DNA of 64,000 bases, from positions 45,639 to 109,638 of the forward strand of contig JAYSSR010000040.1 of the NCBI GenBank assembly GCA_043720395.1, given 5' to 3'. Under the pieces are notes generated by a model. That model did no database searches. It saw only the letters and a program-made list of their open reading frames with translations, and was not told the origin of the DNA. Below, piece after piece: positions 23,161 to 63,072 of the stretch. Position 1 is the stretch's first letter, and the number at the start of each line of letters is the position of its first letter. The translations under genes and the position numbers were made by a program. Source of the stretch: Acidimicrobiia bacterium (GTDB taxonomy: Bacteria > Actinomycetota > Acidimicrobiia > Acidimicrobiales > JANYDT01).

Positions 23161-23178
23161 TTGTGAACGCGTGCACAA
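23161..23178. promoter_or_regulatory. Rex operator (ROP-like) upstream of rex
   Basis: TTGTGAACGCGTGCACAA compared with the published Rex operator TTGTGAA-N4-TTCACAA: 13 of 14 specified positions match. The site ends 18 nt before the rex GTG. Confidence 0.75.
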
Positions 23179-23196
23179 GCGGCGTAGGGTGGCCCC

Positions 23197-23868
23197 GTGT
23201 CCCGCTCCCCCCGGCGCATCCCGGACGCGACTGTCGCCCGCCTCCCGATCTACCACCGCGGCCTCCAAGCGCTGCTTCGTGCCCGACACCACACCGTGTC
23301 GTCCGAGGAGTTGGCCGACCTCGTCGGCGTCAACGCTGCGAAAGTCCGCAAGGACCTCAGCTACCTCGGTTCTTATGGAACTAGGGGCGTCGGGTACGAC
23401 GTGAAGAATCTTGTGGTCGAGATCGGTCGTGAACTCGGCCTGAGCGAGAACTGGGCGGTGGTCATCGTTGGGATCGGAAACCTCGGGCGCGCGCTCGCCT
23501 CCTACAGCGGCTTTTCCGACCGCGGGTTTCGGATCGTCGCGCTGCTCGATGCCGATCCTGCGAAAGCAGGCTCGATGGTCGGGCCGCTCCCAATTCGCGC
23601 CACGAGTGAACTCCGAGAAATTGTGGCCCGCGAAGACGTTGCGATCGGCATCATCGCCACACCGGGTTCAGCCGCCCAGGCGGTTGCCGACCAGATGGTC
23701 GGGGCGGGCATACGATCGATTCTCAACTTCTCACCGGGGACCCTGACCGTGGCCGACGATGTTGCGGTGCGCGGTGTGGACCTGGCTGTGGAGCTCCAGG
23801 TGCTCAGCTACTACCAGCATCACCGAGACGATTCCGAGCCCGGCGTGCACAACACGGCAAGGACGTGA
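23197..23868 (+). CDS. rex: Redox-sensing transcriptional repressor Rex
   Basis: IPDATVARLPIYHRGLQAL, KDLSYLGSYGTRGVGYDV, and the Rossmann motif IVGIGNLGRALA. The rex-hemACD gene order is the one known from Streptomyces. Confidence 0.9.
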   Translation: MSRSPRRIPDATVARLPIYHRGLQALLRARHHTVSSEELADLVGVNAAKVRKDLSYLGSYGTRGVGYDVKNLVVEIGRELGLSENWAVVIVGIGNLGRALASYSGFSDRGFRIVALLDADPAKAGSMVGPLPIRATSELREIVAREDVAIGIIATPGSAAQAVADQMVGAGIRSILNFSPGTLTVADDVAVRGVDLAVELQVLSYYQHHRDDSEPGVHNTART

Positions 23869-32426: not shown

Positions 32427-33104
32427 TTATCGGGTGAGACCCCGTAGATGGGTGCCGATGAGGTGATCGGTGAGCTTGTGGTTCGCCGGCCAATCGACGT
32501 GGGGCTTGGCGATTTGGAGCGACACTAGGCCGTGTACGACGGACCAAACGCCATAGGCCATCAGCTTCGGATCCTCGCTCGTCACGACACCGGCCTTGAT
32601 GCATCGGCGACAGCGGTCGACGAGCGGATCGAGTCCGTTCACCCCATGGCGTCGGAGTTCGTCGAGCTGATCGGGTGTGAGGATCGACTTGCCCATGAAC
32701 AGAATCCGGTAGTGCTCGGGATGATCAAGACCGAAACGGACGTATGCCCGCATCCCTGCCTCAAGGCGTCCGAGCGGGTCGGAGTCTGGGACCGCCGCCA
32801 CCGCAAGATCGACGGCTTGGTTGAGTTGGCGAAACCGGCGCGCGCACACGTCGAACAGCAGTTCTTGCTTGTCGAAGAAGTGGAGGTAGATGGCAGGCGG
32901 GGTGCAGCCCACCCGCTCCGCAACCGCTCTGATCGAGACGGCGTCGGGGGTGGCGTTCGCCATGAGTATCGCGTCGACAGCGTCGAGGATCTCGTCGCGA
33001 AGGCGGTCCCCTTCTCCTCGTTTGGACCGCTGTCGTCGTAAAGGCGCGTCGGACGGGTCAAGAACGTCGAGCGTCGCAGGCGACGGACGGAGCATTGTGG
33101 ACAT
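32427..33104 (-). CDS. TetR-family transcriptional regulator
   Basis: N-terminal HTH SIRAVAERVGCTPPAIYLHFFDKQELL. Confidence 0.85.
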   Translation of the reverse strand: MSTMLRPSPATLDVLDPSDAPLRRQRSKRGEGDRLRDEILDAVDAILMANATPDAVSIRAVAERVGCTPPAIYLHFFDKQELLFDVCARRFRQLNQAVDLAVAAVPDSDPLGRLEAGMRAYVRFGLDHPEHYRILFMGKSILTPDQLDELRRHGVNGLDPLVDRCRRCIKAGVVTSEDPKLMAYGVWSVVHGLVSLQIAKPHVDWPANHKLTDHLIGTHLRGLTR

Positions 33105-33253: not shown

Positions 33254-34024
33254 CTATGGGCAGACTTGGAGTGTTTCGGGAATCTGGAACGTAGCGGCGT
33301 CGAAGGGTTCCTCCGCCGCGATGGTCGGATCCTCCCCAACCTTTGCAAGGACGTTCACGGGGAAATCTTTCGGCGTCGACTGCAAACGATTCCGCTCATA
33401 GTTGACGAGGTAGATCAGTTGTGCGTCGCTCAGTGTGGGGAAGCCCGGCATGCCGGTTTTCGCCGCGTGTTGCCCGCCCTCGCGGTTGGGGTCGCCATAA
33501 GGCTGTCCCGCACCGCAACTGCCGTGCTTCACGAATGCTGCCTGCTCGATGGGGTCGGGGAAGGTCTTCTCGGCTTCGCCGTTGTACAGCGGACGTCCGA
33601 CAAGTCCTTTGTCCGAACCCGCTCCATCGCCGCCATGACAGCTGGCACAGTTGGCGTTGTACAGGCTCTGGCCGATCGACTGTGGGGTGTCGGCACGCGC
33701 CTGCGGGGTTGACCATGTGTTGAACATGAATATCGCCCAGACCGGGAGCCCGGCCAGGAGAAAGACGGACGAGATTTTTGCGAATGCAGCACCCCGAACC
33801 TTCTCCACCCTGGGTGCTGCGGTTCGGCCGCCTGCTTTCGGCACCTTGGGGGCAGCGGCACCGGCGGCGTCCGCGGCGCTTGGATCGACCGGTGCGGCCG
33901 GCACAGATGCAACCGGGGAGGTGGTGTCGGTCGGAGTCGGGCTCGGGGCCTCGACGCCTTCACCCGATAGGGCGGCGCGACGCGCTTTGGCCCGATCAAG
34001 CAGGTGCGGGGGTACTTCAGCCAC
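33254..34024 (-). CDS. Membrane-anchored monohaem c-type cytochrome
   Basis: Single CASCH haem motif with a distal TGMPGF Met. About 80 aa of cytoplasmic Ala/Pro-rich N-terminus, then the TM helix ISSVFLLAGLPVWAIFMF. Confidence 0.75.
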   Translation of the reverse strand: MAEVPPHLLDRAKARRAALSGEGVEAPSPTPTDTTSPVASVPAAPVDPSAADAAGAAAPKVPKAGGRTAAPRVEKVRGAAFAKISSVFLLAGLPVWAIFMFNTWSTPQARADTPQSIGQSLYNANCASCHGGDGAGSDKGLVGRPLYNGEAEKTFPDPIEQAAFVKHGSCGAGQPYGDPNREGGQHAAKTGMPGFPTLSDAQLIYLVNYERNRLQSTPKDFPVNVLAKVGEDPTIAAEEPFDAATFQIPETLQVCP

Positions 34025-34237
34025 GTGGTCCTCCGGAGACAGCGCCCGACTTCCGGGCGCGCTATTCAGCGTTGATGTAACCCGCGCACGGGCTCATGCC
34101 CTGTTGAATCTAGGCGCGTTTGGAGGTCACGCCCAATCATCGATCGAAGTGCGATTCGGCGACCCCGGGTTCGGTCGTGGTAGAACGGCTCCCGAGAAAC
34201 GGCGTTCGTACGCACGACGAGCGGCGACCGAAGTACA

Positions 34238-34255
34238 ATGTGATTTGATTCACAA
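34238..34255. promoter_or_regulatory. Perfect TGTGA-N6-TCACA palindrome (Rex- and/or CRP-type operator) overlapping a TACAAT -10-like hexamer
   Basis: ATGTGATTTGATTCACAA. The right half TTCACAA is a perfect Rex half-site and the left half matches 5 of 7. TACAAT lies at 34234-34239, and the site is 65 nt upstream of the first gene of the + strand respiratory array. Confidence 0.65.
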
Positions 34256-34319: not shown

Positions 34320-34829
34320 GTGGTTGCGTTCTTCGCCTCGTTGCTGGCACTCATCGTGTTCATTGCTCTCCCCGCCGCGTACGGCAAGCGTCGCCCTGTC
34401 GGCACGCCCGTCACGTGGGGCGAGGCCATGGCAGGCAGCCTCTATTTGTTCTTTGTGATGTTCTGGGCATACGGAGTGGTACCTCACCAGTTCCTCTCGT
34501 GGGCCGACGGTCCGCTGAAGTGGCGTGCCGATGCCTACGGCATCCCGGCGGGCAAACTTCGCGAGCTGATCGGCGAGAAGGAAAACCACTTCTACAGCTA
34601 CAAGAGCAACGCGTTCTGGCCGAGTGGGGTCACCTTTGGCGGGCGCGGTCGAGTCTTGGTCAGCAAGGAACACGTGCGGGACTTCGTCGCCGCAAACATT
34701 TACATCGTCTTTCTCGGTGTTCACATCGCGCTCTGGGGTGCCTGGCAGAAGCGTGGCAAGAAGGCCTCTGCGAAGGCCGCCCTGGCACCGACATCGACCT
34801 ATGGGCGTCCGCTCGTGAAGAAGGCCTGA
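34320..34829 (+). CDS. Membrane protein of unknown function, first gene of the bc-type cluster
   Basis: 169 aa with 3-4 hydrophobic segments (FFASLLALIVFIALPAA, SLYLFFVMFWAYGVV, ANIYIVFLGVHIALWGAW). It ends 7 nt before the ferredoxin gene. Confidence 0.5.
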   Translation: MVAFFASLLALIVFIALPAAYGKRRPVGTPVTWGEAMAGSLYLFFVMFWAYGVVPHQFLSWADGPLKWRADAYGIPAGKLRELIGEKENHFYSYKSNAFWPSGVTFGGRGRVLVSKEHVRDFVAANIYIVFLGVHIALWGAWQKRGKKASAKAALAPTSTYGRPLVKKA

Positions 34830-34836
34830 GGTCGCA

Positions 34837-35250
34837 ATGGCCAAGACCGATGCCAACCCACCGATGCCCTATTTCCCGGGCGGCTATACGCTCGCGGAAA
34901 TCACCGTGGATGACCTCAACAAGAGCGTCAAGCCCAAGCAGTTCCTGCATATCGATCAGTCCGAATGCATTATGTGCGAGGGCTGCGTGGACATCTGCCC
35001 GTGGAAGTGCATCCATATGCTCTCCGCTGGCACCGTCGAGGACTCGGTCAACGTCGTTGCGCCGGGAACTGATCCCGACGATCACGTCGTCTTCGTCGTG
35101 GACGAGGACGTCTGCACGCGTTGCGGTCTCTGTGTGGACCGGTGTCCGACCGGCGTCATCATCATGGGCAAGGCGGGCGTGGCCCCTCGCGATGGCGACC
35201 AGCACATGCGCGACAACAAGCACGGCTATTCCTACGGGATGCGGTTCTAG
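34837..35250 (+). CDS. 2x[4Fe-4S] ferredoxin-domain protein
   Basis: CIMCEGCVDICP and CTRCGLCVDRCP cluster motifs; 137 aa. Confidence 0.8.
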   Translation: MAKTDANPPMPYFPGGYTLAEITVDDLNKSVKPKQFLHIDQSECIMCEGCVDICPWKCIHMLSAGTVEDSVNVVAPGTDPDDHVVFVVDEDVCTRCGLCVDRCPTGVIIMGKAGVAPRDGDQHMRDNKHGYSYGMRF

Positions 35251-35416
35251 TGCGTTCCCAGCCTTCCGCTACCGGTCGCGATATCCAACCCTGTAGGGAG
35301 GAGGGCGAAGCACGACGTACGCCGTCCAACCGGCGGCGGAGCTGCTTCGGTTCGACGGAACTGTCTCAGCGCGCCCGAAGGGCGCACAATCCGGTGATGA
35401 CTCCGAAGGAGCGCGA

Positions 35417-36190
35417 ATGGCAACACCGATGAAGCCAGGCATCGGCGACAAGGTCGCTGAACGGGTGGACAAGGTCCAGGGCAGTCAAGCCTGGAACTCG
35501 ATCTTCCGACCAGGATCGATCTTTCGCAAGGGTTACAGCGACTCGCCGCGTAACCGCAGCTACGTCATCATGAACTCGCTGCTCTATCACCTTCACCCCG
35601 TGAAAGTGAAGCGCCACGCGGTCAAGGTCAGCTATACACTGTGCCTTGGCGGGCTCTCGTTCTTCCTGTTCATCGTGCTGACCGTCACGGGCATCTTCTT
35701 AATGTTCTTCTACCGGCCCACCGAGGCGGCAGCGTGGACCGATATCAAAACGCTGCACACCGCCGTGACATTCGGGCTCCTCGTGCGAAACATGCATCGG
35801 TGGGGTGCGCACCTCATGGTGCTCTCCGTTTTCTTGCACATGGCCCGCGTCTTCTACCACGGTGCCTACAAGGCACCGCGCGAGTTCAACTGGGTTATTG
35901 GCGTCATCCTCCTCATGCTGACGCTGCTGCTTTCGTTCACCGGCTACCTCCTCCCCTGGGATCAGTTGGCACTCTGGGCGGTAACGGTCGGAACGAACAT
36001 GATCGGCTACACCCCCGTGTTCGGCCCGCAGTCGCGATTCGTCTTGCTGTCAGGTGTTGAGATCGGCACGGACACGCTCTTGCGATGGTATGTGTTGCAT
36101 GTGTTGCTGTTTCCCTTCGTCATTGTCATCTTCATGGCGATTCACTTCTGGCGTGTCCGCAAGGACGGCGGTATCTCCGGTCCTCTGTGA
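35417..36190 (+). CDS. Cytochrome b, N-terminal (b6-type) subunit of a split cytochrome b
   Basis: Four haem-ligand His (NMHRWGAHLMVLSVFLHMARVF and LRWYVLHVLLFPFVIVIFMAIHF), a CLGG motif at res 76-79, and AAGGAG 8 nt upstream of the ATG. Confidence 0.85.
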   Translation: MATPMKPGIGDKVAERVDKVQGSQAWNSIFRPGSIFRKGYSDSPRNRSYVIMNSLLYHLHPVKVKRHAVKVSYTLCLGGLSFFLFIVLTVTGIFLMFFYRPTEAAAWTDIKTLHTAVTFGLLVRNMHRWGAHLMVLSVFLHMARVFYHGAYKAPREFNWVIGVILLMLTLLLSFTGYLLPWDQLALWAVTVGTNMIGYTPVFGPQSRFVLLSGVEIGTDTLLRWYVLHVLLFPFVIVIFMAIHFWRVRKDGGISGPL

Positions 36191-36225
36191 CCTGAGAGCC
36201 GCCTCGAATCGAACAAGGAGTCCAC

Positions 36226-37065
36226 GTGGCAGACGTCCCAGAGCACCTGTTGAAACGGGCCGAAGAGGCCAAGGCTCGCGCCGCTGCGAAGAAGGCGGCT
36301 GCGGCTGGAGAGGCCGTGCCCATGCCAGTTGTCGCGGCGCCCGACTCCGGTGATGCGGCTAGCTATGCGGAGGCGGAACAAACCGGCAAGATTCCTGCGC
36401 ACCTGCTCGCCCGGAGCGCGGCTGCGAAGGCGGCCAAGGCCTCGGGCGGGGGCGAGGCCCCATCGGCGGGTGGTGGCGGGGTCGCGGTACTCGACAAACC
36501 GACGGGTGGGGCAACCGCCGCTGCCGCAGCGATGGCGACCCCAGCGTCGGCTGGTCTTGTGGGGCCGGCTGGCCACAACCAGCGGCTGCTTACCGTCGTC
36601 AAAGCCGGTTCGATTCAGGACGTGAAGGCAACGCCCACCGACAAGGTGAGCACGTGGCCCCACCTCCTCGTCGGTGAGTTCGTCGCTTCGCTCGCCTGCT
36701 TGACCGTCTTGATGATCATGTCGGTGTTCATCAACGCCCCATTGCTCAAATTGGCGAACTACAACCAGACGCCGAACCCTTCGAAAGCGCCGTGGTACTT
36801 CCTGGGTCTCCAGGAATTGCTCACGATGTTTCACCCCATGGTGGCCGGTGTCACCATTCCCGGCATGGGTCTGTTCATCCTGATTCTCGCGCCTTACGTC
36901 GACAAGAATCCGTCCAACAAGCCAGAAGACCGCAAGGTGGCGATCTCGCTGTTCTCGATCTTCATGATGTTTTGGGCGGTCCTCGTCATCATCGGATCAT
37001 TCTTCCGAGGACCTGGCTTTATTTTCATCTTTCCCTGGCAAAAGGGCATCTTCTTCGAGCTCTGA
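36226..37065 (+). CDS. Cytochrome b C-terminal (subunit IV-like) protein with a long Ala-rich N-terminal extension
   Basis: TM core with a Qo-loop-like NPSKAPWYFLGLQELL, preceded by about 140 aa of low-complexity Ala/Gly/Pro sequence. Confidence 0.8.
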   Translation: MADVPEHLLKRAEEAKARAAAKKAAAAGEAVPMPVVAAPDSGDAASYAEAEQTGKIPAHLLARSAAAKAAKASGGGEAPSAGGGGVAVLDKPTGGATAAAAAMATPASAGLVGPAGHNQRLLTVVKAGSIQDVKATPTDKVSTWPHLLVGEFVASLACLTVLMIMSVFINAPLLKLANYNQTPNPSKAPWYFLGLQELLTMFHPMVAGVTIPGMGLFILILAPYVDKNPSNKPEDRKVAISLFSIFMMFWAVLVIIGSFFRGPGFIFIFPWQKGIFFEL

Positions 37066-37115
37066 GCTCCAAGAAGACACCTCCGCACCGAGATCCCAAG
37101 CGCACCGAAATAGAT

Positions 37116-37988
37116 ATGAGCACTGGCACCACACTCCTCATCGCCATCATCGTTGTCGTCGTCCTGGCAGTGCTGTTCTTGGCCGTCACGGCTCGGAGCA
37201 GCGACCGTAACGCCGCGACCGGACTCCTTGCGCGGGAGACAGAACGGCGCGACCGTCAGCGCCGTCATCGCGCCGCGGTCGGCGACAACGAGGCACCTGC
37301 GGCATCAGGTCGCACGCTGGAGCGTTCCGTGGCGTTGGCGCAACGTGGTGGGAGTGCGGTCGCTGTCGTCGAAGCGGCGAGCGTGCCCGACATTCTCCGT
37401 CCACCAATGGATGCCGACCAACTAGGCGTTGTCAGGCGTCAGTTCATGAACCGCAGCATTATCGTCCTGTTCTTGGTGAGCCTCGGCGGCTTCGGTGCGT
37501 CTCTCTTGGCGTTTCTCTGGCCAAGCCAGACGGGTGGTTTCGGCGCGACCGTCAAAGTCGGCAAGCTCGATGACATCCTCGCCGACATCAAGACGAAGGA
37601 GGAGCCGTTCTACGTCGCAGAGGCCCGCACCTACCTCGTCCCGTATCCGAAGGAAGCGCTCGCGAAGGGCAAAGCCAGCTACGGCGAGACGGTGTACAAG
37701 GGCATGGAGCAGGGCGTGGTTGCCCTCTACCAGAAGTGTGTGCACCTGGGTTGCAAGGTGCCGTGGTGCAAGAGTTCGCAATGGTTCGAGTGCCCGTGTC
37801 ACGGTTCGCAGTACAACCGCGTCGGTGAGAAGAAGGCCGGCCCGGCACCGCGCGGACTTGATCGATTTGCCGTCAGCGTGGATGGCGGAATCGTGAGCGT
37901 CAACTCGGGTGCCCGTACCAACGGTCCCGCAATTGGCGTCAACACCACCGGGCAAGAGGCCGAAGGCCCCCACTGCGTCTCCGAATGA
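37116..37988 (+). CDS. Rieske [2Fe-2S] iron-sulfur subunit
   Basis: CVHLGC...CPCHGSQY Rieske boxes and two TM helices. The start is placed at MSTGTTLLIAIIVVVV inside the 398-aa ORF. Confidence 0.85.
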   Translation: MSTGTTLLIAIIVVVVLAVLFLAVTARSSDRNAATGLLARETERRDRQRRHRAAVGDNEAPAASGRTLERSVALAQRGGSAVAVVEAASVPDILRPPMDADQLGVVRRQFMNRSIIVLFLVSLGGFGASLLAFLWPSQTGGFGATVKVGKLDDILADIKTKEEPFYVAEARTYLVPYPKEALAKGKASYGETVYKGMEQGVVALYQKCVHLGCKVPWCKSSQWFECPCHGSQYNRVGEKKAGPAPRGLDRFAVSVDGGIVSVNSGARTNGPAIGVNTTGQEAEGPHCVSE

Positions 37989-39310
37989 TGGCTGCTGAGG
38001 AGAACATGAACGTCATTGACACTGTGAACGTGCTCGCGGCGACGCCGCAGAAGGCCGTCGGACTGACCATCCTGGTGGTCGCTCTGCTGGCCTGGGTGCT
38101 GTACCTCATTACCGAGAATCGGCGTACGCCGAAGTCGAACATCGAGAGCTTTCTCGGAGCGCCCAACCGGAAAGTGCCGCCGGAAGACGACGAGTTCGAA
38201 GGGCCCCGCCTCGATCGATTCCTCGGCTGGGCCCTCATCGGCATCGCAATCATGGCCGTGTCACTGCCCGCCTATTTCTTGGCTGAACCGGGGCGTGAAG
38301 TGGGCGCGATTCGGGGCTTCGACAAGCGAAGCGTCCATCGCGGCGAGGAGTCGTTCGGCGCCGAGCACAACGGATTCAACTGTGCGAAGTGTCACGGCGC
38401 AGACGGCGGCGGCGGCGTCACGTCCTGGTCCGTTGCGCAGTACAACGCCGATGGAACTCCCAAGATCGACCCTTCAACGAAGAAGCAGGAACTGAAGCAG
38501 GTCACTTGGTTAGCACCGAGAGTCAACGACGTTGCCCTTCGCTATCGGAGGGAACAGATCCGCAACGTCCTGATCTATGGGCGCGGCACCAACAAGCCAA
38601 TGCCCGCGTGGGGGATCAAGGGAGGCGGACCGGCCAACGAACAGCAGATCGATGACCTCGTGAATTACCTCCGCTTTGCTGCATTGGAACAGGACGAAGA
38701 AGCGGTAAAGGTGTACAACGCTGAATGGAACAGCAACGGTCATAGCGCGGACAAGGCGTTCGACAAGGCGTTCGAGGCAGCCGCCGAGAGAGCCCAGAAG
38801 GAATCAACCGACGCTCTCGCGAAGATCAAGACGGACTCCGCAAAAGCGGTGCAGGCAGCGTCCAACCCAACGGGACCGCTCCTGACCGCCACGAAGGGTC
38901 TCGCCGATGCCAAGACTGCGAACGATCCAGGTTTGATCGCAGCCGCCGAAGCCAAACTTGCTGAGGCAACCCGAAACCTCGACAACGCGAAAAAGGTGCT
39001 CGCCGCGTCGGATGGTGAGCTCCTGTTCAACTCGAACTGCGCTCGCTGTCACACGAATGGCTACAGCTACGGAGAGCCCAACGGATCCGGCGGCGGCTTC
39101 TACGGTCCGCGGCTCTCCGAGTCCAGCCTGACCCAGCAGTTCCCCGAGAAAGTCACTCAGATCGAATACATCAAGAACGGTGTGGAGGACTCGAAAGCCT
39201 ACGGTACCGGTGGCGTCAACCATTGGTCCGGCGGCGGAATGCCCTACTTCGGGACCATCCTCACGGATGAACAGATCGAAAAGATCGTCGACTACGAGCG
39301 GAGGCTGTGA
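37985..39310 (+). CDS. Dihaem c-type cytochrome, N-terminally anchored
   Basis: CAKCH and CARCH motifs, and an N-terminal TM helix LTILVVALLAWVLYLI. Its start overlaps the Rieske stop. Confidence 0.8.
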   Translation: MMAAEENMNVIDTVNVLAATPQKAVGLTILVVALLAWVLYLITENRRTPKSNIESFLGAPNRKVPPEDDEFEGPRLDRFLGWALIGIAIMAVSLPAYFLAEPGREVGAIRGFDKRSVHRGEESFGAEHNGFNCAKCHGADGGGGVTSWSVAQYNADGTPKIDPSTKKQELKQVTWLAPRVNDVALRYRREQIRNVLIYGRGTNKPMPAWGIKGGGPANEQQIDDLVNYLRFAALEQDEEAVKVYNAEWNSNGHSADKAFDKAFEAAAERAQKESTDALAKIKTDSAKAVQAASNPTGPLLTATKGLADAKTANDPGLIAAAEAKLAEATRNLDNAKKVLAASDGELLFNSNCARCHTNGYSYGEPNGSGGGFYGPRLSESSLTQQFPEKVTQIEYIKNGVEDSKAYGTGGVNHWSGGGMPYFGTILTDEQIEKIVDYERRL

Positions 39311-40182
39311 TGTCGGCCGTGCTGTCCACGCTCGTCAACGACGGTGGGGTCGTGGCGAACCTCCGATGGAATCCGACGTTTCGAGGCATTCTCTTTCCCA
39401 CCATCCAGTTCTTGGTGCTCTGTGGGAGTTGCTACCTCATTCTTGCTACGAATATTGGCAACCGTCTCGGTTTTCTGGTGGCGTCGGCCGCGTTTTGGGG
39501 ATGGATGGTCCTGATGACCCTGGTCTGGATGATTTACGGCATCGGACTGCTCGGCTTCGCTCCGAAATGGGTTGTGCAGGAGGCAATCACCGACAGCAAG
39601 ACTGCGCAGGTCGAGGTTGTCACGCGAATACCGAACGAGGCGACCACCATTGTGCCGAAGGGCTGGAAGGCCGTCGCCGACGGTGCGCCCGCGCGTGGCG
39701 AGGCTCAATCAGCGATCGATGCACGGCTCGTACCCGAGGGTCAGACGGCCACCTACGTGCCGATTTCCGGGTACGAGATCGGTGGCGAGCAGCGTCTGAA
39801 GGTGTGGCCGAAGATCGAGCCTGGTGGCAAGTGGTACAACCCGGCGGACTATGCGTTCCGCGGCCTCCTGCACTCGAAGCACTACTACGTCGGTCAGGTC
39901 CAACCAATGTTGTTGGAAGACGTCACCGTGAATGGTGTCGTGCAGTACGACGACAAAGGCAAAGCCAAGCAGACGGCGGTCAAGAAAGACGGGAAGGAAG
40001 TGCCCGATACTGCAAAACCCGTCACGACCGTTGTCTTGATTCGCGATCTCGGCTCGCGTCGTCAGCCGCCTTTCGTTATCTTTCTCTGTTCGCTCGTCCT
40101 GCTCAGCCTGTCGCTTTTCAACCTTCATCGACGCGACAAGCAAGTCATGGCTGCCATGTCACAGTTCGCGAAAGCAGCCTGA
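39307..40182 (+). CDS. Membrane protein of unknown function, last gene of the bc-type cluster
   Basis: 291 aa: three N-terminal TM helices, a soluble middle domain of about 150 aa, and a C-terminal TM helix (PFVIFLCSLVLLSLSLF). GTGA overlap with the cytochrome c stop, and it ends 6 nt before nuoA. Confidence 0.5.
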   Translation: MMSAVLSTLVNDGGVVANLRWNPTFRGILFPTIQFLVLCGSCYLILATNIGNRLGFLVASAAFWGWMVLMTLVWMIYGIGLLGFAPKWVVQEAITDSKTAQVEVVTRIPNEATTIVPKGWKAVADGAPARGEAQSAIDARLVPEGQTATYVPISGYEIGGEQRLKVWPKIEPGGKWYNPADYAFRGLLHSKHYYVGQVQPMLLEDVTVNGVVQYDDKGKAKQTAVKKDGKEVPDTAKPVTTVVLIRDLGSRRQPPFVIFLCSLVLLSLSLFNLHRRDKQVMAAMSQFAKAA

Positions 40183-40188
40183 CGGCTC

Positions 40189-40668
40189 ATGGCCGATTAC
40201 CTCCCGATCGTTCTGCTACTGATCGTTTCGACGCTCTTCGTTTTCGGTTCTTTCGTCGCAAGCGCCGTGCTTGGGCCGACGCGTCAGGAAACGGCAGCCA
40301 AGATCGGGCCGTACGAATGCGGGATCGTTCCAGACAAAGAGACGGCGGAGCGGTTCCCCGTCCGCTTCTATCTCGTCGCGATGATCTTCATCATCTTCGA
40401 TATCGAGATCATTTTCCTGTACCCGTGGGCTGTCCTGTTCGGGAGGCTCGGCACGTTCGGTCTGGTTGAGATGGTCATCTTCTCGATTGCCGTTCTGGTG
40501 TCGTTCGTGTATCTCATTTCCAACGGCGCGCTCGACTGGGGCCCGATTGCGCGACTTCGTGAACTCGAAGGGTCCGTAGCACTCCGGGTCCCCGATGAAC
40601 TTCGGACGTCGGCATCGTCGATTCGGCGAATCCCGAAGCCTCCACGTGAACCACAGGAAGCGGCCTGA
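40189..40668 (+). CDS. nuoA: NADH-quinone oxidoreductase subunit A (copy 1, with a C-terminal extension)
   Basis: PYECGIVP...[27 protein letters not shown]. Confidence 0.9.
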
Positions 40669-40669
40669 C

Positions 40670-41218
40670 ATGGGCCTCGAGGATCTCAACCACAACTTCG
40701 TCACGGGCACAGTCGAATCGCTTGTGAAGTGGAGTCGCCAAAACAGTGTGTGGCCGGCGTCGTTCGGACTTGCCTGCTGCGCCATCGAGATGATGGCGAC
40801 CGGTGCTTCGCGGTTCGATCTCGCCCGTTTCGGCATGGAAGTCTTCCGCGCCTCTCCGCGCCAAGCCGATCTCATGATCGTTGCCGGACGCGTCTCCCAG
40901 AAGATGGCACCGGTACTTCGTCAGGTCTACGACCAGATGATGGAACCGAAATGGGTGATCTCGATGGGTGTTTGCGCGTCTTCCGGCGGGATGTTCAACA
41001 ACTACGCCATCGTTCAGGGAGTGGACCAGATTGTTCCGGTCGACGTGTACGCGCCAGGTTGCCCACCTGGACCGGAGACGCTGATCTACTCAATCCTCAC
41101 GCTGCACGAGAAGATCAAGACCGGCGAGATCACGAAGAGGCGTCAAGACAGCGGTGCCGGTGCCGGGATCATGCTGGACGCACCTCCGCCCACCATCGCG
41201 ATTGGTCGGCCCAAGTGA
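40670..41218 (+). CDS. nuoB: NADH-quinone oxidoreductase subunit B (copy 1, actinobacterial type)
   Basis: [60 protein letters not shown]. Confidence 0.9.
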
Positions 41219-41255
41219 TATTGCACCAACTCCAAACCGCCGGCTGGTAGCGAAC

Positions 41256-41786
41256 ATGAGCGACCAGACCACTGCCGGAAGCACCGACGAAACGTCTGCG
41301 GCGCCCGATCCCGAGACTCTTCACGGCGCGCCCATCACGTACAGCCGCGGCCAGAAGACAGCGCACGCTTCCACCTCCGGGTACATCAAGCTCGTCACGG
41401 AACTCAAGGAGACCGGGTTCAACATGTGTGTCGATCTCACTGCGGTCGACTACCTGATGACTACCGATCGGGACCTCCCGGCAGGCACGGTCGGTGAACG
41501 ATTCGAGATCGTTGCCAACCTTCTGTCTCACTCGAATCGCCAGCGGATTCGCGTCCGCGCGCAGGTTCCAGAGTCTTCGGCGTCAATTTCATCGCTCTAC
41601 GATCTCTACCCGGGAACCGAGGCAATGGAGCGCGAGGTCTACGACCTGCTCGGTGTGACCTTCGACGGCCATCCAGACCTGACCCGAATTCTTCTGCCCG
41701 ACGAATGGGAGGGTCATCCCCTCCGCAAGGATGACCCGATGGGTCGCATTCCCGTGCAGTTCAAGTCCGCACCCCAGGCGAGATGA
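41256..41786 (+). CDS. nuoC: NADH-quinone oxidoreductase subunit C
   Basis: ERFEIVANLLS, YPGTEAMEREVYDLLGVTFDGHPDLTRILLPDEWEGHPLRKD. Confidence 0.9.
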   Translation: MSDQTTAGSTDETSAAPDPETLHGAPITYSRGQKTAHASTSGYIKLVTELKETGFNMCVDLTAVDYLMTTDRDLPAGTVGERFEIVANLLSHSNRQRIRVRAQVPESSASISSLYDLYPGTEAMEREVYDLLGVTFDGHPDLTRILLPDEWEGHPLRKDDPMGRIPVQFKSAPQAR

Positions 41787-43105
41787 GTCGGTTCGACATG
41801 AACACCAGCCAGGAAATGCAGGACCGGACCGACACGTCAGCCAAGGAAATCGAACGCGAGGAGGGCGCAGTATTGCGCGGTGTGTCGGACTCCGACGCCG
41901 CTGTCTACAGCGCCGAGGATTACAACATCGAACTCGGCGACGACGAGACGATGATCATCAATATGGGCCCTCAGCACCCAAGCACGCACGGCGTCCTGCG
42001 CGTGATGATGGAACTCCGCGGCGAACAGGTACTCCGCACCAAGCCAGTGATCGGCTATCTCCATACCGGCATGGAAAAGACGGCTGAGAATCTCACCTTC
42101 CTGCAGGGTGGCACCAACGTCACCCGAATGGACTATCTGAGTCCGCTGTTCAATGAGTTGGCGTTCTCGATGGCGACCGAGCAATTGCTGGATATCGAGA
42201 TTCCGGACCGTGCAACGTGGATCCGCATGCTCATGTGCGAGCTCAACCGGATGGCAAGTCACCTTCTGTTCATGGCCACCAACGGCATGGACCTCGGCGC
42301 CGTCGGCATGATGATCTACGGATGGCGCGAACGCGAACTCGTGCTCAGCTTCTTCGAGCGCACGACCGGTCTTCGGATGAATCACAACTACATCCGCCCC
42401 GGCGGGGTTGCAGCGGATCTTCCACCCGGCTGGCAGGCGGAAGTGCTCTCGCTCTGCGCAGAGATCGAGCCCCGCCTTGATGAGTACGACACGCTGCTGA
42501 CCGGGCAGCCGATCTTCCTCAATCGAACTCAGGGCGTCGGCGTCATCTCGGCCGATGAAGCGATTGCGCTCGCCGCTACCGGTCCAATCCTTCGTTCGAC
42601 CGGCGTCGAGTGGGATCTCCGGCGGCACATGCCGTACCTCGCCTATGACAAGGTCGACTTCGACGTGATCGTGGGCACACATGGTGACGCGTTCGACCGT
42701 TACGCGATCCGCCTGCATGAGATCCGTGAATCGATCCGCATCGTCCGCCAGGTCGTTGACATGATGCCCATGGGTGACTACCGGACGCAGAACAAGAAGG
42801 TAACCCCGCCGCCGCGCGGCCGCATCGATGAGTCGATGGAAGCGCTCATCCACCATTTCAAACTCTTCACCGACGGCTTCAAGGTTCCCGCTGGGGAGGT
42901 CTACGCGCCCGTAGAGTCGCCCCGCGGCGAACTCGGCTGCTACATGGTCAGCGATGGTGGGACCAAGCCGTACCGGATGCACATGCGTGGTCCGAGCTTC
43001 GTGAACCTGCAATCGATGCCCACCATGATGAAGGGTGCGATGGTCGCCGACGCAATCGCGATCATCTCCTCGATCGACCCCGTCCTCGGTGAGGTCGACC
43101 GGTAG
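41783..43105 (+). CDS. nuoD: NADH-quinone oxidoreductase subunit D
   Basis: NMGPQHPSTHGVLR, GYLHTGMEK, ESPRGELG, and a C-terminal DPVLGEVDR. Confidence 0.9.
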   Translation: MSRFDMNTSQEMQDRTDTSAKEIEREEGAVLRGVSDSDAAVYSAEDYNIELGDDETMIINMGPQHPSTHGVLRVMMELRGEQVLRTKPVIGYLHTGMEKTAENLTFLQGGTNVTRMDYLSPLFNELAFSMATEQLLDIEIPDRATWIRMLMCELNRMASHLLFMATNGMDLGAVGMMIYGWRERELVLSFFERTTGLRMNHNYIRPGGVAADLPPGWQAEVLSLCAEIEPRLDEYDTLLTGQPIFLNRTQGVGVISADEAIALAATGPILRSTGVEWDLRRHMPYLAYDKVDFDVIVGTHGDAFDRYAIRLHEIRESIRIVRQVVDMMPMGDYRTQNKKVTPPPRGRIDESMEALIHHFKLFTDGFKVPAGEVYAPVESPRGELGCYMVSDGGTKPYRMHMRGPSFVNLQSMPTMMKGAMVADAIAIISSIDPVLGEVDR

Positions 43106-43133
43106 GTCGAACAGTAAAGAGATACGTACGCAT

Positions 43134-43697
43134 ATGGCCCGCTTCACTCCCGCAAATCTCGAACGCGCCCGCGAGCTCGTGGGTCATTACCCGCGTCCGA
43201 AAAGCGCCACGATCCCGCTCTGCCATCTCGCGCAGGAGCAGGACGGTTACCTCAGCGATGCCGCAATGGAGCAGATCGCCGAGCTCGCAGGGTGCACGCC
43301 CGCCGAGGTCTACGGCACGGCGAGCTTTTACGAGATGTTCAAGTTTCACGAGGTAGGCAAATACCTGATCGGCGTCTGCACGAACATCTCCTGCATGCTG
43401 CTCGGAGGCGAGGAATTGCTTGATCACGCAGCCGACTCGCTCGGCGTCCGACCTGGCGCAACAACGTCCGACGGGCTGTTCACGCTTGAGGAGATGGAGT
43501 GCCTCGCTGCGTGCACCGAGGCACCCTGCCTGCAGGTCAACTACCGCTACCACCACAAGGTCACCAGCGCAGACTTTGACGGCCTCGTCGCTGACCTGCG
43601 ACTCGGTAAGCGTTCCGAGATCCCGCTGCATGGGACGCTCTCCAAAGTCCGACAGTCCATCCCGGCCGACCGCCGCGCCAGCCACGACAGCATCTGA
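43134..43697 (+). CDS. nuoE: NADH-quinone oxidoreductase subunit E
   Basis: [2Fe-2S] Cys pattern CTNISCML...ECLAACTEAP. Confidence 0.9.
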   Translation: MARFTPANLERARELVGHYPRPKSATIPLCHLAQEQDGYLSDAAMEQIAELAGCTPAEVYGTASFYEMFKFHEVGKYLIGVCTNISCMLLGGEELLDHAADSLGVRPGATTSDGLFTLEEMECLAACTEAPCLQVNYRYHHKVTSADFDGLVADLRLGKRSEIPLHGTLSKVRQSIPADRRASHDSI

Positions 43698-43708
43698 GGA
43701 ACTAGCTC

Positions 43709-45016
43709 ATGCCGGCACCTCTCAAGATGATCACGACCCGCTGGGATCAACCCGATGGTCACACTCTCGACGGCTACCTCCGTACCGGCGGCTACGACGC
43801 TCTCCGCAAAGCGCTTGCGACCGATCCGGGGGCAGTGATCGAGGAGGTCAAGACGGCCAACCTTGCCGGTCGCGGCGGCGCGGGCTTCCCGTGCGGCACG
43901 AAATGGTCCTTTCTCCCGAAAGACGTGTTCCCCCGCTATCTCGTCGTCAACGGCGATGAGTCCGAGCCCGGCACCTATAAGGACCGCATCCTGCTGGAAC
44001 GCGATCCGCATCAGTTGATCGAGGGCGTCCTCATCACGAGCTGGGCAATTCAGGCGAAGCAGGCGTTCATCTACATCCGAGGCGAAATGCCGCACGCGCA
44101 CGAGCGCATGGCGCAGGCGCTGAACGACGCGTACGCCGCTGGCTTCATCGGCAAGAACATCTGCGGCACCGACTTCTCGATCGACGTCATGCTGCACTGG
44201 GGTGCCGGGGCGTACATCGTCGGCGAGGAAACTGCGCTCATCGAGTCACTCGAAGGCAATCGCGGTATGCCGCGATTGAAGCCGCCGTTCTTCCCGGCTT
44301 CCAAGGGCCTGTATATGCAGCCCACGGTGGTCAACAACGTTGAAACTCTTTCGAATTTGCCATGGATCATCAACAACGGGGCCAAGGCATTCACGGCGAT
44401 CGGCAACGAGAAGAACTCTGGCACCCGATTGTTCGCAGTTTCGGGCCACGTGAAGAAACCCGGTGTGTTCGAAGTCGAGTTCGGCACCACGACGTTCCGG
44501 GAACTGTTCTACGACCCACAATTCTGCGGCGGGATCCGTGCTGACCGCACGGTGAAGGCATTCATCCCCGGCGGCGGGTCGGCACCGTGGTTCTTCGCTG
44601 AAGACCTTGATACGCCCCTCGACGCAGGCATCGTAGCCAGCAAGGGATCGATGCTCGGGTCCGGTGCGATTATCGTGATGGACGACACGACCGACATGGT
44701 GAAAGCCGCGTGGCGACTCGTGAAGTTCTTCGCGAAAGAGAGCTGTGGGAAATGCTCGCCGTGCCGGGAGGGCACGAACTGGCTTGAGAAGATTTACCGT
44801 CGGATACTTGAGGGCCACGGCCGTCCCGAGGATATCGACCTCCTCCTCGACGTTGCCGACAACATCAGCCCCGGGCTCACCTGGCCCCCGAAGCAGACGA
44901 CCATCTGTCCACTCGGCCCGTCTGCGGCGGGTGGTGCCCTCGTGAGTTCCATCCGTCATTTCCGTAGCGAATACGACGCCTACGTCTCCCATACCTCGGT
45001 TGCGGCCGCGCACTGA
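43709..45016 (+). CDS. nuoF: NADH-quinone oxidoreductase subunit F
   Basis: GRGGAGFPCGTKWSF, NGDESEPGT, ESCGKCSPCREG. Confidence 0.9.
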   Translation: MPAPLKMITTRWDQPDGHTLDGYLRTGGYDALRKALATDPGAVIEEVKTANLAGRGGAGFPCGTKWSFLPKDVFPRYLVVNGDESEPGTYKDRILLERDPHQLIEGVLITSWAIQAKQAFIYIRGEMPHAHERMAQALNDAYAAGFIGKNICGTDFSIDVMLHWGAGAYIVGEETALIESLEGNRGMPRLKPPFFPASKGLYMQPTVVNNVETLSNLPWIINNGAKAFTAIGNEKNSGTRLFAVSGHVKKPGVFEVEFGTTTFRELFYDPQFCGGIRADRTVKAFIPGGGSAPWFFAEDLDTPLDAGIVASKGSMLGSGAIIVMDDTTDMVKAAWRLVKFFAKESCGKCSPCREGTNWLEKIYRRILEGHGRPEDIDLLLDVADNISPGLTWPPKQTTICPLGPSAAGGALVSSIRHFRSEYDAYVSHTSVAAAH

Positions 45017-45042
45017 TCCCGCCTGACTTCTCCGGAACCACC

Positions 45043-47667
45043 ATGAGCGACACGACCAAAACCACATCCGAGGCACCTACACCCGAGGCGCCGAAGAAGA
45101 CCACGCTGACCGTCACGATCGACGGCACGGCGATGGAGGCAAACCCCGGCGAGCTGCTCATCGCGGCCGCGGAGCGCACGGGCACCTACATCCCCCGCTT
45201 CTGCTGGCACCCTCGCATGCGCGAGGTCGGCATGTGCCGGATGTGCCTCGTCGAGGTCAGCGGCCCGCGCGGCATGTCATTGCAGCCCGCCTGCATGCAG
45301 CCGTGTGGCGAGGGAATGGTCGTCGACACGAAGTCGGACACAGTGAAAAAAGCGCAGGACGGCGTCCTGGAATTTCTTCTCATCAACCACCCGCTCGATT
45401 GCCCAGTCTGCGACAAGGGTGGCGAGTGTCCGCTCCAAGATCAGACGCTCACCTTCGGACCGGGCGAGTCGCGCTTCGTTGAAGAGAAGCGTCACTACGA
45501 GAAGCCTATTGCCATCAGCGATCTCGTGCTGCTCGACCGCGAGCGCTGCATTCTCTGTGACCGTTGTACTCGCTTTTCGAAGGAAGTGGCCGGCGACCCG
45601 CTCATCCATTTCGTCAACCGTGGCAACATGACTGAGGTCAACACGTTCCCCGACGACCCGTTTGCCAGCTACTTCAGCGGAAACGTCGTCCAGATCTGCC
45701 CCGTGGGAGCGCTTACCGCGAAGCCATATCGCTTTGCCGCCCGGCCGTGGGATCTGGACCAGGTCGAGTCCACGTGCACAACCTGCTCTGTCGGTTGCAA
45801 GACCGTGATCCAGTCGAGCGGCGATCGCATCACCCGGTATCAGGGTGTGGACTCCGACCCGGTGAACTGGGGATGGCTTTGCGACAAGGGACGTTTCGGC
45901 TTTGAGGCGGTCTCGTCGCCTGAACGCTTCACGAACCCGCTGATGCGCTCCTCGGCGGTCGCCGCGCTCGAACGGACCACCTGGGCCGAGGCGCTCGGTG
46001 TTTCGGCGGATCGTCTGCGCGCGTATCAACCGTCGGAGATCGGCGTCATCGGCGGCGCACGGCTTACGAACGAGGATCAGTACGCGTGGGCGAAGCTGGC
46101 CAAATCGGTTCTGCGTACGGACAACGTCGACGCTCAGCTCGGCGATGGACTTCCCGCCGAAGCGGTCCTTGGCCTGCCGGGTGCCACGATTGACGATGCG
46201 ATGAAGGCAACGGCCGTCGTGCTGCTGAGCGCCGATGTGAAAGAAGAACTGCCGGTCCTGTTCCTCCGGCTGCGCGATGCGGCCGCGAACCGTCACGTGC
46301 CGATGGTCGAACTGTCGCCGATTGCCACGGGGATCACCAAATATGCGGGGGTCTCGGTACGTTACCGACCGGGCGAAGTGGTCGGCGCAACCCACGCGTT
46401 GCTCGCTGCGTTCGGGGGCTCACCGGCAGAGCGTCAGATCGCTGGCGTTGAAGGCGAATCGCTGAATGCTGCGGCCGCGTTGCTGAGCAAGGCGATCGAG
46501 TCGGGCAAAGGAAACGGCAAAGTCGTCGTCGTGCTCGGGCCGACGGCCGATTCTGCGAGCGCCGTACTTGAGGCAGCCGCTGCCCTTCACGCGGCCGTGC
46601 CGAACGTTTCGTTCCTACCAACGCTTCGCCGCTCGAACGTGCGCGGCGCGCTCGACCTCGGCCTCACACCGGGGATGCTGCCCGGCCGAGTCACCCTGAC
46701 GGATGGCGCAGCCTGGTTCGCGTCGCATTGGTCGGCCATTCCGAGCGGTCGAGGGCTTGAGACGGTGGCAATGCTGGAGGCCGCAGCCGCCGGGACGCTG
46801 AAGGCGCTCGTTTTGCTCGGTGCCGATCTCGCCGACTGTCCGGATCATGGACTCGTGGAGCGAGCCCTCGCCAACGTGGAGTTCCTCCTCTGCGTCGACA
46901 CGCTTCCGAACACCACGAACCGACGCGCCGACGTTGTGCTCCCGGCCGCCGGTTATGCCGAAAAGGACGGCACGACCACGAACCTCGAAGGACGCGTCAC
47001 GCGGGTCGCGTCGAAGGTAAGTGCGCCAGGTGTGGCCCGCGCTGACTGGACGATCGCGGCCCTGCTTGCCATGGAGCTCGGTGCGGACCTTGGATTCGAG
47101 AGTGTCGCCGACGTGACCGCAGAGGTCGCCCGAGTCGCGCCCTCGCATGTCGGGCTCGTGGCAGCAGTACTCGATGCTCGGGCCAACACCGACGGCGTGT
47201 TGCTGCCGCTGGCGAGCGTTGCTCCGTCGGTGCCTGAGACCTCGGACTCCGAGGGGCCGGCTGGACCGGCCCTGCCCGCGCTGGTCACGTTCCGCGCCGC
47301 GTCGACGACTGCCGTAGTTCCGACGCCGGACTCCTATTCGATGCGCCTCGTCACGGTGCGTTCGCTGTACGACCAGGGCACGCTTGTTCAGGCGTGTGAG
47401 TCGCTTTCGCACCTCGCTCCAACGCCTGGCGTGCACCTGAACCCCGGTGAAATCGAGCGCCATGGGCTCCGAGCAGGGGGCTCGGTGAAAGTTCTTTCGC
47501 AGTCGGCAGATCTGACCGCAACCGTCATCTCCGACGATCGCGTCCCGCGCGGTGTCGCCGTACTGCCGCTCAACCTTGGTGGCGGGGCGGCAGGCGCGCT
47601 CGTCGATCTCTCGACGACTGCCAAAGAGGGCATCACCAAAGTTCGCCTGGAAACGGCGGGGAGCTGA
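45043..47667 (+). CDS. nuoG: NADH-quinone oxidoreductase subunit G (long form)
   Basis: CWHPRMREVGMCRMCLVEV, HPLDCPVCDKGGECPLQ, CILCDRCTRF; 874 aa. Confidence 0.9.
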   Translation: MSDTTKTTSEAPTPEAPKKTTLTVTIDGTAMEANPGELLIAAAERTGTYIPRFCWHPRMREVGMCRMCLVEVSGPRGMSLQPACMQPCGEGMVVDTKSDTVKKAQDGVLEFLLINHPLDCPVCDKGGECPLQDQTLTFGPGESRFVEEKRHYEKPIAISDLVLLDRERCILCDRCTRFSKEVAGDPLIHFVNRGNMTEVNTFPDDPFASYFSGNVVQICPVGALTAKPYRFAARPWDLDQVESTCTTCSVGCKTVIQSSGDRITRYQGVDSDPVNWGWLCDKGRFGFEAVSSPERFTNPLMRSSAVAALERTTWAEALGVSADRLRAYQPSEIGVIGGARLTNEDQYAWAKLAKSVLRTDNVDAQLGDGLPAEAVLGLPGATIDDAMKATAVVLLSADVKEELPVLFLRLRDAAANRHVPMVELSPIATGITKYAGVSVRYRPGEVVGATHALLAAFGGSPAERQIAGVEGESLNAAAALLSKAIESGKGNGKVVVVLGPTADSASAVLEAAAALHAAVPNVSFLPTLRRSNVRGALDLGLTPGMLPGRVTLTDGAAWFASHWSAIPSGRGLETVAMLEAAAAGTLKALVLLGADLADCPDHGLVERALANVEFLLCVDTLPNTTNRRADVVLPAAGYAEKDGTTTNLEGRVTRVASKVSAPGVARADWTIAALLAMELGADLGFESVADVTAEVARVAPSHVGLVAAVLDARANTDGVLLPLASVAPSVPETSDSEGPAGPALPALVTFRAASTTAVVPTPDSYSMRLVTVRSLYDQGTLVQACESLSHLAPTPGVHLNPGEIERHGLRAGGSVKVLSQSADLTATVISDDRVPRGVAVLPLNLGGGAAGALVDLSTTAKEGITKVRLETAGS

Positions 47668-48914: not shown

Positions 48915-48968
48915 GATGATCATTTCGAGTCGAGTGCAGCGAGTCCGTTGCCCCCAGCGGGAGCTGTG

Positions 48969-49655
48969 ATGGGGTATCTCGACGGCTTCCGAATCCCGCT
49001 GCAGGAGGCGTTCCGCAAGGACGTCCGGACCGAGGCATACCCCGACACGATCCGCCCGAAGCCGGAGCGCTTCCACGGACGTCACGTGCTGAATCGCTAC
49101 GAAGACGGCATGGAGAAATGCATCGGCTGCGAGCTCTGCGCGGGGGTCTGTCCAGCGAAGTGCATCTACGTTCGCGGTGCGGACAACGATCCGGAAAACC
49201 CGACGTCACCGGGCGAGCGATTCGGTTTCGTGTACGAGATCAACTATCTCCGCTGTATCCACTGCGACCTCTGTGTCGAGGCGTGCCCGACCGAGGCAAT
49301 CACCGAGTCGAAGATCTTCGAGTTCGCGTTCACCAACCGTCGTGACGCGATCTATACGAAGGCCGAGCTTGTCGTCGGTGATGACGGCCTCCCACAGGTG
49401 CAGCCGTGGGAAGACGACCGCGGTGCGACGATGGGATTGAGCGGTTGGATGCGCGCAACCGCACCCGGCGGCGACGCCGACTTCCGTGGTGAAGAGCTGT
49501 GGTCGGGTGATCTGGTCGCCGGTGTCCGTGCCGCTGAAGCAGGCCCACAGGTCGAGGCCGACGAGCGCGCCGCCCGCCTTCACGTAGCCGAGTCAACCGA
49601 CGCTTCTGGGCACGATGGCCAGAGCAATGGTCACGGTCACGGAGGTCATCACTGA
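48969..49655 (+). CDS. nuoI: NADH-quinone oxidoreductase subunit I (with a His/Gly-rich C-terminal tail)
   Basis: CIGCELCAGVCP and CIHCDLCVEACP. The tail ends ...GHDGQSNGHGHGGHH. Confidence 0.9.
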   Translation: MGYLDGFRIPLQEAFRKDVRTEAYPDTIRPKPERFHGRHVLNRYEDGMEKCIGCELCAGVCPAKCIYVRGADNDPENPTSPGERFGFVYEINYLRCIHCDLCVEACPTEAITESKIFEFAFTNRRDAIYTKAELVVGDDGLPQVQPWEDDRGATMGLSGWMRATAPGGDADFRGEELWSGDLVAGVRAAEAGPQVEADERAARLHVAESTDASGHDGQSNGHGHGGHH

Positions 49656-50535: not shown

Positions 50536-50540
50536 CCTGA

Positions 50541-56087: not shown

Positions 56088-56133
56088 CCCCGACGCATCA
56101 CACGAAATATCGCCGGAATCTGAGGAACCAGTC

Positions 56134-63066: not shown

Positions 63067-63072
63067 AACGTG

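Follow-up and report, generated by a model that had tools for sequence, protein, structure and literature searches.

A conserved palindrome at the head of a bc-nuo respiratory array in Acidimicrobiia is a probable Rex operator overlapping a candidate -10 hexamer

The analyzed window, by which we mean the whole stretch of 64,000 nucleotides, has a G+C content of ~60–68%, and the closest relatives of its proteins are all found in metagenome-assembled genomes of Acidimicrobiia. It contains a rex gene followed by hemA and further haem-synthesis genes, a minus-strand gene for a membrane-anchored cytochrome c and, divergent from the latter, a long series of plus-strand genes for a bc-type complex and complex I (Table 1). 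An intergenic region of 295 bp separates the cytochrome c gene from the first plus-strand gene, in agreement with the initial annotation of this DNA, and an Rfam search of this region returned no RNA element at E ≤ 1. The GTG start codon of the first plus-strand gene is backed by the MVAF consensus of its homologues. The hem genes and the cytochrome c gene are separated by a minus-strand gene for a TetR-family regulator.

Table 1 Genes and sequence features of the window discussed in the text, with positions counted from the first nucleotide of the window.
Feature	Position	Strand	Basis or remark
Second predicted Rex operator, TTGTGAACGCGTGCACAA	23161–23178		Match to the Rex 18-mer; identity to a footprinted ROP
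rex	23197–23868	+	Pfam, NCBIfam
hemA, with further haem-synthesis genes after it	from 23972	+	Pfam/NCBIfam
hemB	from 30157	+	Pfam/NCBIfam
hemL	from 31125	+	Pfam/NCBIfam
TetR-family regulator	32427–33104	-	Pfam/NCBIfam
Membrane-anchored cytochrome c	33254–34024	-	Pfam Cytochrom_C; divergent from the array
Conserved bipartite element	34153–34186	+	GATT at 34153–34156 and GTGGTAGAAC at 34177–34186; 51 nt upstream of the operator
TACAAT, candidate -10 hexamer	34234–34239	+	Conserved TANNNT at the operator edge, sharing its last two bases with operator positions 1–2
Predicted Rex-type operator, ATGTGATTTGATTCACAA	34238–34255		Consensus match, class-wide conservation, flank pattern
169-aa membrane protein, no Pfam/NCBIfam family	34320–34829	+	Conserved in Acidimicrobiia, 932 homologues
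2x[4Fe-4S] ferredoxin	from 34837	+	Pfam/NCBIfam
Cytochrome b6-like protein	from 35417	+	Pfam/NCBIfam
Subunit-IV-like protein (split cytochrome b)	from 36226	+	Pfam/NCBIfam
Rieske protein, long	ends 37988	+	Pfam/NCBIfam
Dihaem cytochrome c, 441 aa	from 37985	+	Pfam/NCBIfam
291-aa membrane protein, no family	39307–40182	+	ORF; Pfam/NCBIfam searched
nuoA to nuoN	40189–55710	+	Pfam/NCBIfam
Second nuoA/nuoB pair	55713–56649	+	Oxidored_q4/Oxidored_q6
Crp/Fnr-family regulator, rival candidate binder	63073–63732	-	cNMP_binding and HTH_Crp_2

The bc-type cluster (34320–40182) is unusual in its make-up. With 300 bits, its split cytochrome b exceeded the cutoff of the ExtP model (NF040969), and it matched ExtQ weakly. 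The nuoA gene begins 6 bp past the stop codon of the last gene of this cluster, and the nuoA-like and nuoB-like genes located directly after nuoN are duplicates of the first two complex I genes. Terminator-like matches between positions 33000 and 42000 showed no excess (8 versus 7.0 expected from shuffled sequence). Based on this missing excess and on the 6-bp gap ahead of nuoA, we place the palindrome described below at the head of a 22-kb co-directional respiratory array (34320–56649), which is presumed to be an operon; its co-transcription is deduced from gene spacing. No other Rex-like site was found in the intergenic DNA of the array. With such a short gap before nuoA and no second intergenic site of this kind, the earlier proposal that the whole bc-nuo array is under one control is plausible.

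The 22-mer TACAATGTGATTTGATTCACAA at positions 34234–34255 contains the palindrome on which the initial annotation had focused, a TGTGA-N6-TCACA sequence overlapping a TACAAT hexamer, and the letters of the window bear out both elements. The 16-bp core TGTGATTTGATTCACA (34239–34254) is a perfect TGTGA-N6-TCACA, and the 18-mer that extends it by one base on either side agrees with the Rex consensus TTGTGAA-N4-TTCACAA at 12 of the 14 specified positions, the mismatches lying at position 1 (A) and position 7 (T). The exact 16-bp pattern occurs once in the window versus 0.03 occurrences expected, and one copy was obtained in 3 of 100 shuffled 64-kb windows. Two matches to the Rex 18-mer with at most two mismatches were found (0.11 expected), a number which none of 100 shuffles reached. 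One of them is the palindrome itself, which precedes the first gene of the array by 64 nt, and the other one lies upstream of rex.

We examined the conservation of the palindrome in 80 Acidimicrobiia loci chosen for a gene product related to the 169-aa protein (41–70% identity to the protein of the window), which together with the window made 81 loci. Within the 350 bp preceding the first gene, the best-scoring 18-mer was counted as a site when it agreed with the Rex consensus at 11 or more of the 14 positions. An operator match was present at the orthologous place in 73 of the 81 loci, versus a background of 24 positions reaching the same score in the other 1.2 Mb of these loci, and the sequence between and around the sites was not conserved among the orthologous loci. 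The gene neighborhood was retained as well, with the ferredoxin in 80 loci, the divergent cytochrome c gene in 53, and nuoB 5.6–7 kb downstream in 44. A chance origin of the palindrome, or a sequence without regulatory function such as a remnant repeat to which no protein binds, would agree with the frequency of the motif by itself, as a lone 16-bp palindrome per 64 kb is just moderately improbable given its recovery from 3 of 100 shuffles. However, a site that is kept at the same position in 73 of 81 loci, in the midst of intergenic DNA that is not conserved, effectively refutes this explanation, to which we give almost no credence. The comparison indicates that the bc-nuo array is headed by a genuine operator, the palindrome, whose conservation is class-wide, and thus upholds the initial assignment of the palindrome as an operator in a respiratory promoter region. 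The TetR-family regulator is unlikely to bind elements that occur class-wide, because TetR homologues were found nearby in just 15 of the 80 loci, in either orientation.

The operator was absent or decayed in eight loci (L047, L048, L066, L071, L072, L074, L079 and L080), and these 8 of 81 loci are a point against assigning the palindrome to Rex. Locus L048 has TGGTTGACACCCTCACGA at the place where its relatives carry TGGTGAACACCTTCACGA, and L066, L071 and L074 lack both the operator and the bipartite element treated below. A few Rex-like sites were seen elsewhere in the compared loci. One of them, ATGTGAAAACAATCACAA (L061:4715–4732), is located 20 nt upstream of a NuoF-like (Complex1_51K-type) gene, and another one, TTGTGAAGTGAGTCACAA (L048:3142–3159), between a fatty-acid-desaturase-like gene and a transglycosylase/Rpf-like gene, the latter judged by eye. 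These two sites may mark additional members of the regulon. A third Rex-like site lies inside nuoE of L072. The extra sites in L072, L048 and L061 are too few for a reconstruction of the regulon.

The rex gene reported by the initial annotation at position 23197 was confirmed by the NCBIfam equivalog NF003992 (313 bits versus a cutoff of 226 bits). Its product has the Pfam domains Put_DNA-bind_N and CoA_binding, which correspond to a winged helix and a Rossmann fold, contains a GIGNLG motif, and aligned over its full length with Rex chains from the PDB (E = 2e-46). Judged from these sequence features, an intact Rex, a redox-sensing repressor, is encoded in the window. The second predicted Rex operator, read in reverse complement, is identical to the rex operator (ROP) that has been footprinted with DNase in Streptomyces avermitilis, TTGTGCACGCGTTCACAA (PMC5355995). 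In the rex promoter (23161–23196), the operator is followed by 6 nt, a TAGGGT -10 hexamer, another 6 nt and the GTG start codon. Since the operator ends 6 nt before TAGGGT and lies 19 nt upstream of the GTG, rex appears to be leaderless and autoregulated.

This arrangement recurs in other members of the class. Including the window, we examined 12 Acidimicrobiia rex genes, the 11 additional ones (L063, L081, L093 and L101–L108; 56–78% identity) being obtained partly by look-ups of exact proteins, and a Rex-type site was present upstream of rex in 12 of 12. In L063 and L101–L108 this site is located 5–6 nt upstream of a TANNNT hexamer, with the start codon usually within 6–7 nt after it, and in L081 and L093 it lies ~131 nt upstream of the region that matches rex. 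The next gene is hemA in L101–L108, the loci checked for it. At position 13, where the consensus has T, most of the 12 rex operators have G (..GCACAA), and this conserved asymmetry might tune the autoregulation of rex. A metagenome scan for rex loci yielded mostly distant, non-Acidimicrobiia Rex genes without clear sites.

A second protein encoded in the window has to be considered as a binder of the palindrome. The crp gene annotated initially at position 63073 was recovered as a member of the Crp/Fnr family, and it might be this Crp/GlxR-type protein that occupies the site, alone or besides Rex, and places the array under cAMP control. Its longest open reading frame extends to 63945 (290 aa) but is probably over-extended, with the true start at a GTG near 63732. 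The adjoining gene in convergent orientation is disA (DAC and DisA-linker domains, a c-di-AMP synthase; 61993–63945 for the pair). GlxR is reported to exert such control over respiratory operons in Corynebacterium. The perfect TGTGA-N6-TCACA core of the palindrome equals the consensus of mycobacterial Crp (PMC7739888; PMC2724278), and the recognition helix of the window protein, SRERVNK, conserves the Arg-Glu...Lys contacts of CRP_Mt (PMC5758884). Crp is furthermore known to act on cydAB in M. smegmatis (PMC7739888), and CRP_Mt sites have been predicted at ctaE, ctaC, ctaD, ndh and sdh in M. tuberculosis (PMC2724278). On the other hand, the protein scored 94 bits and thus below the 266-bit cutoff of the NCBIfam CRP equivalog, a model that is not actinobacterial.

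Because the cores of the two motif types coincide, the bases outside the shared core and within its spacer are informative. Sites were re-selected on GTGA-N6-TCAC alone as a safeguard against ascertainment bias, which resulted in 65 loci with 42 unique sites. Across these 42 sites, position 1 of the 18-mer was T (23) or A (19) and never G or C, position 2 was T in 38, position 7 was mixed (A 12, G 15, T 13, C 2), position 12 was T in 37, position 17 was A (17) or G (25), and position 18 was A in all 42. Conservation hence spans the Rex 18-mer beyond the 16-bp CRP core, and a variable base, position 17, is the last base of that core. The specificity of a CRP site would be confined to the 16 bp, whereas positions 1, 18 and 12 are conserved here. 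The CRP_Mt motif is the 16-mer (C/T)GTGA-N6-TCAC(G/A), and no conserved flanks have been reported for the related regulator Cmr (PMC5758884). The alternation of A and G at position 17 agrees with the CRP_Mt motif; the near absence of C at position 2 does not, as CRP_Mt tolerates C or T there. Position 12 separates the two families further, since T was found at the equivalent position in one of nine experimentally verified M. tuberculosis CRP sites (PMC2724278) but in all five DNase-footprinted ROPs of S. avermitilis (PMC5355995). The footprinted ROPs also include variants that recur among the Acidimicrobiia sites, ATGTGAA.. at cydA1 as well as ..GTGAT.. and ..TTCACGA at atpI (PMC5355995), so that both deviations of the palindrome from the Rex consensus have a counterpart in a bound site.

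Some features of the site class fit Rex less well. The left half-site deviates from the consensus, with T at position 7 in the window and A in just 12 of the 42 orthologous sites, and position 13 is G in the rex-upstream operators and T in those of the bc-nuo arrays, so that the two classes are similar but not identical. Nevertheless, the motif shape, the autoregulatory twin site and the type of target together point to Rex. The same motif class is found at the rex promoter in 12 of 12 genomes, the copy in the window matching a footprinted Rex site, which counts against a CRP-type binder. Moreover, control by Rex has been proven for nuo, cyd, atp and rex-hem in Streptomyces (PMC5355995). We therefore regard control by Rex, and thus by the NADH/NAD+ ratio, as the most likely and best-supported interpretation of the palindrome from the sequence data, and occupation by the Crp-like protein as quite unlikely.

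The geometry of the site bears on the same question and on the mode of regulation. A scan for canonical sigma-70 promoters between positions 33000 and 42000 called no -35/-10 pair. As actinobacterial promoters often lack a -35 element, we relied on the conservation of the -10 hexamer instead. In 51 of 72 non-redundant orthologous promoters, operator position 0, 1 or 2 is the last base of a TANNNT hexamer, and these 51 are all but 3 of the 54 TANNNT hexamers found between -60 and +58 (from 60 nt before the operator to 40 nt after it). The upstream TA was also considered as part of an extended palindrome, but no mirror-image conservation exists on the downstream side (3 versus 51). Owing to this concentration at the operator edge and the missing mirror image, TACAAT is best seen as a candidate instance of a conserved -10 element that shares its final bases with the beginning of the operator. 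Transcription would then be predicted to start at ~34245–34247, 6–8 nt past TACAAT and in the middle of the operator.

In 29 of the 73 loci, just 13–19 nt, including a GGAGG ribosome-binding site, separate the operator from the start codon. No downstream promoter fits into such a gap, and the class I and class II geometries of CRP activation, which call for a site centred near -41.5 or -61.5, are ruled out in these 29 orthologues. Repression by a CRP-type protein is geometrically possible at the operator, and repressing CRP sites over a start site are known, for example crp2 in M. smegmatis (PMC7739888). The overlap with TANNNT and the proximity to the start codon suggest that the operator has the position of a repressor site. 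The initial annotation had proposed that the operator is placed to occlude the -10, which is in line with the TANNNT conservation and the predicted start site; the ~21 of 72 orthologous promoters that have no overlapping TANNNT count against it. Its further proposal of control by NADH/NAD+ and/or cAMP held up best in its Rex half, whereas the CRP half is disfavored by flanks that fit the Rex 18-mer and by the closeness to the start codon. Taken together, we consider it probable that the palindrome is a Rex operator overlapping the -10 and start region of the bc-nuo array promoter.

Upstream of the operator, the intergenic region holds a second conserved feature. The sequence GTGnTA(G/A)A(A/C)C (GTGnTARAHN) occurs on the plus strand 31–55 nt upstream of the operator in 74 of the 81 loci and is preceded at fixed spacing by a GAT(G/T) block, and the 17-nt stretch between the GATGTG block and the GTG is not conserved. 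The window contains a single intergenic copy of the full motif. This bipartite element does not conform to TANNNT, because its last base is C in most loci, and its two parts are spaced too widely for a sigma-70 -35/-10 pair. We take it to resemble ECF-type promoters (GGAAT-N18-GTT), and it may be a second, non-canonical or alternative-sigma promoter or an activator site. There may thus be two promoters, one overlapped by Rex and the other one with Rex bound downstream of it.

Several other explanations of the element were discarded. With a single intergenic copy, and with recurring minus-strand copies inside the cytochrome b coding sequence, GTGGTAGAAC does not qualify as a general promoter motif. 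A conserved 8-codon mini-ORF (GTG or ATG at -20 to -18 in frame with TAG or TAA) fits the Microthrixaceae-like loci, including an ATG-for-GTG substitution, but fails in the window and in L001–L020. An upstream reading frame leading from GTGGTA into the TGA of the operator was dismissed, as the distances are not in a consistent frame.

The bipartite element offers a different account of how Rex would act. If the real promoter were at 34153–34186, the Rex-bound operator would be a roadblock 25–60 or 45–65 nt downstream of the transcription start, and TACAAT would be secondary or unused. This possibility draws on the presence of the element in 74 of 81 loci at a limited distance from the operator and on its being the sole promoter-like element in the ~21 promoters without overlapping TANNNT, which belong to lineages such as L005–L020. 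In addition, roadblock positions of Rex are on record for S. avermitilis, at +108 to +135 of wblE and at -3 to +25 of cydA1 (PMC5355995). However, neither the last base nor the spacing of the element suits a sigma-70 promoter, the promoter scan called none of this type in the region, and the rex promoters of the same genomes use a canonical TAGGGT-type -10. The TANNNT hexamers at the operator edge, 51 of 54, are also much too enriched to be incidental. The roadblock is thus a tentative alternative that deserves some weight, and a Rex operator lying over the -10 hexamer is the interpretation that we favor. One may also imagine a two-input switch shared across the Acidimicrobiia, in which the bipartite element drives the bc-nuo super-operon through a sigma factor or regulator, and the Rex operator over a sigma-A-type -10 gates both inputs. 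Competition by the Crp-like protein could possibly add to this, so that NADH/NAD+, cAMP and a third signal would converge on the array, but we regard such a scheme as doubtful.

For the favored interpretation, with Rex over the -10, we infer the following circuit. At a low NADH/NAD+ ratio, a dimer of the Rex protein encoded at 23197 would bind the operator at 34238–34255 and block RNA polymerase by steric exclusion. When NADH accumulates, for instance because respiration is limited, NADH-bound Rex would leave the DNA and the whole respiratory array would be derepressed. Rex would also repress its own leaderless rex-hem operon through the operator at 23161–23178. Rex footprints in S. avermitilis comprise 23–29 nt (PMC5355995), and a footprint of this length would here cover both the -10 hexamer and the start site. 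Control of this steric type has been demonstrated for nuoA1, cydA1, atpI and rex in Streptomyces (PMC5355995).

Acidimicrobiia, which are almost entirely uncultured, abound in soil, freshwater, marine and wastewater communities. To our knowledge, nothing is known experimentally about gene regulation in this class, and a search of the accessible literature found no paper on Rex in Acidimicrobiia. Our analysis provides the class with a testable regulatory link, in which one NADH-sensing repressor and one operator would govern a quinol-oxidising complex together with complex I. It also yields an operator model specific to the clade, [TA]TGTGA-N6-TCAC[AG]A with position 12 being T, which can be used to search for the Rex regulon in metagenome-assembled genomes. 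As a regulon prediction the outcome appears solid and useful, and it would be unsurprising to a specialist.

Among the known systems, mycobacterial Crp (Rv3676 and MSMEG_6189) and GlxR of Corynebacterium share with the operator an identical 16-bp core, TGTGA-N6-TCACA (PMC7739888; PMC2724278; PMC5758884), as well as respiratory targets, and a Crp-family gene is present in the window. In contrast to their sites, the operators described here have conserved bases outside the core and a T at position 12 that is not typical of verified CRP_Mt sites. The Crp sites of M. smegmatis cydAB are situated at -58 to -101 (PMC7739888), whereas the geometry in many of the orthologues studied here is incompatible with activation. 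The Rex operators of Firmicutes (TTGTGAAW4TTCACAA in S. aureus, PMC2883068; also B. subtilis and streptococci) are bound by the same protein family and have the same half-sites. Their regulons, however, consist mainly of fermentation and anaerobic genes and their spacers are AT-rich, while the spacer of the Acidimicrobiia operators is mostly GC-rich across the class and the predicted target is aerobic respiration, as in Streptomyces.

The closest parallel is provided by the Rex circuit of Streptomyces, whose operators (ROP) were reportedly described by Brekasis and Paget in 2003. The ROPs of S. coelicolor and S. avermitilis at nuoA-N, cydABCD, atpI and rex-hemACD (PMC5355995) have the same 18-bp TTGTGAA-N4-TTCACAA repeat with the same tolerated variants and lie inside promoters or shortly after them. 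In both systems, complex I and a rex-hem operon are among the known or predicted targets, and the autoregulatory 18-mer, located between -35 and -10 of rex, is identical in reverse complement. The differences lie in the lineage, as Acidimicrobiia are known mostly from metagenome-assembled genomes, and in the organization of the target, as a b6-type Rieske/cytochrome b complex is here fused ahead of nuoA-N behind one upstream region. Furthermore, the ROP covers the -35 at nuoA1, atpI and rex of S. avermitilis, whereas the operator at the bc-nuo array lies over the candidate -10 and the predicted start, and the S. avermitilis sites have been footprinted, whereas the Rex site reported here is a prediction from sequence. 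We conclude that this is a well-known type of switch in a new lineage and not a new mechanism; it extends the Streptomyces paradigm to a deep actinobacterial branch and leaves the view of how Rex works unchanged.
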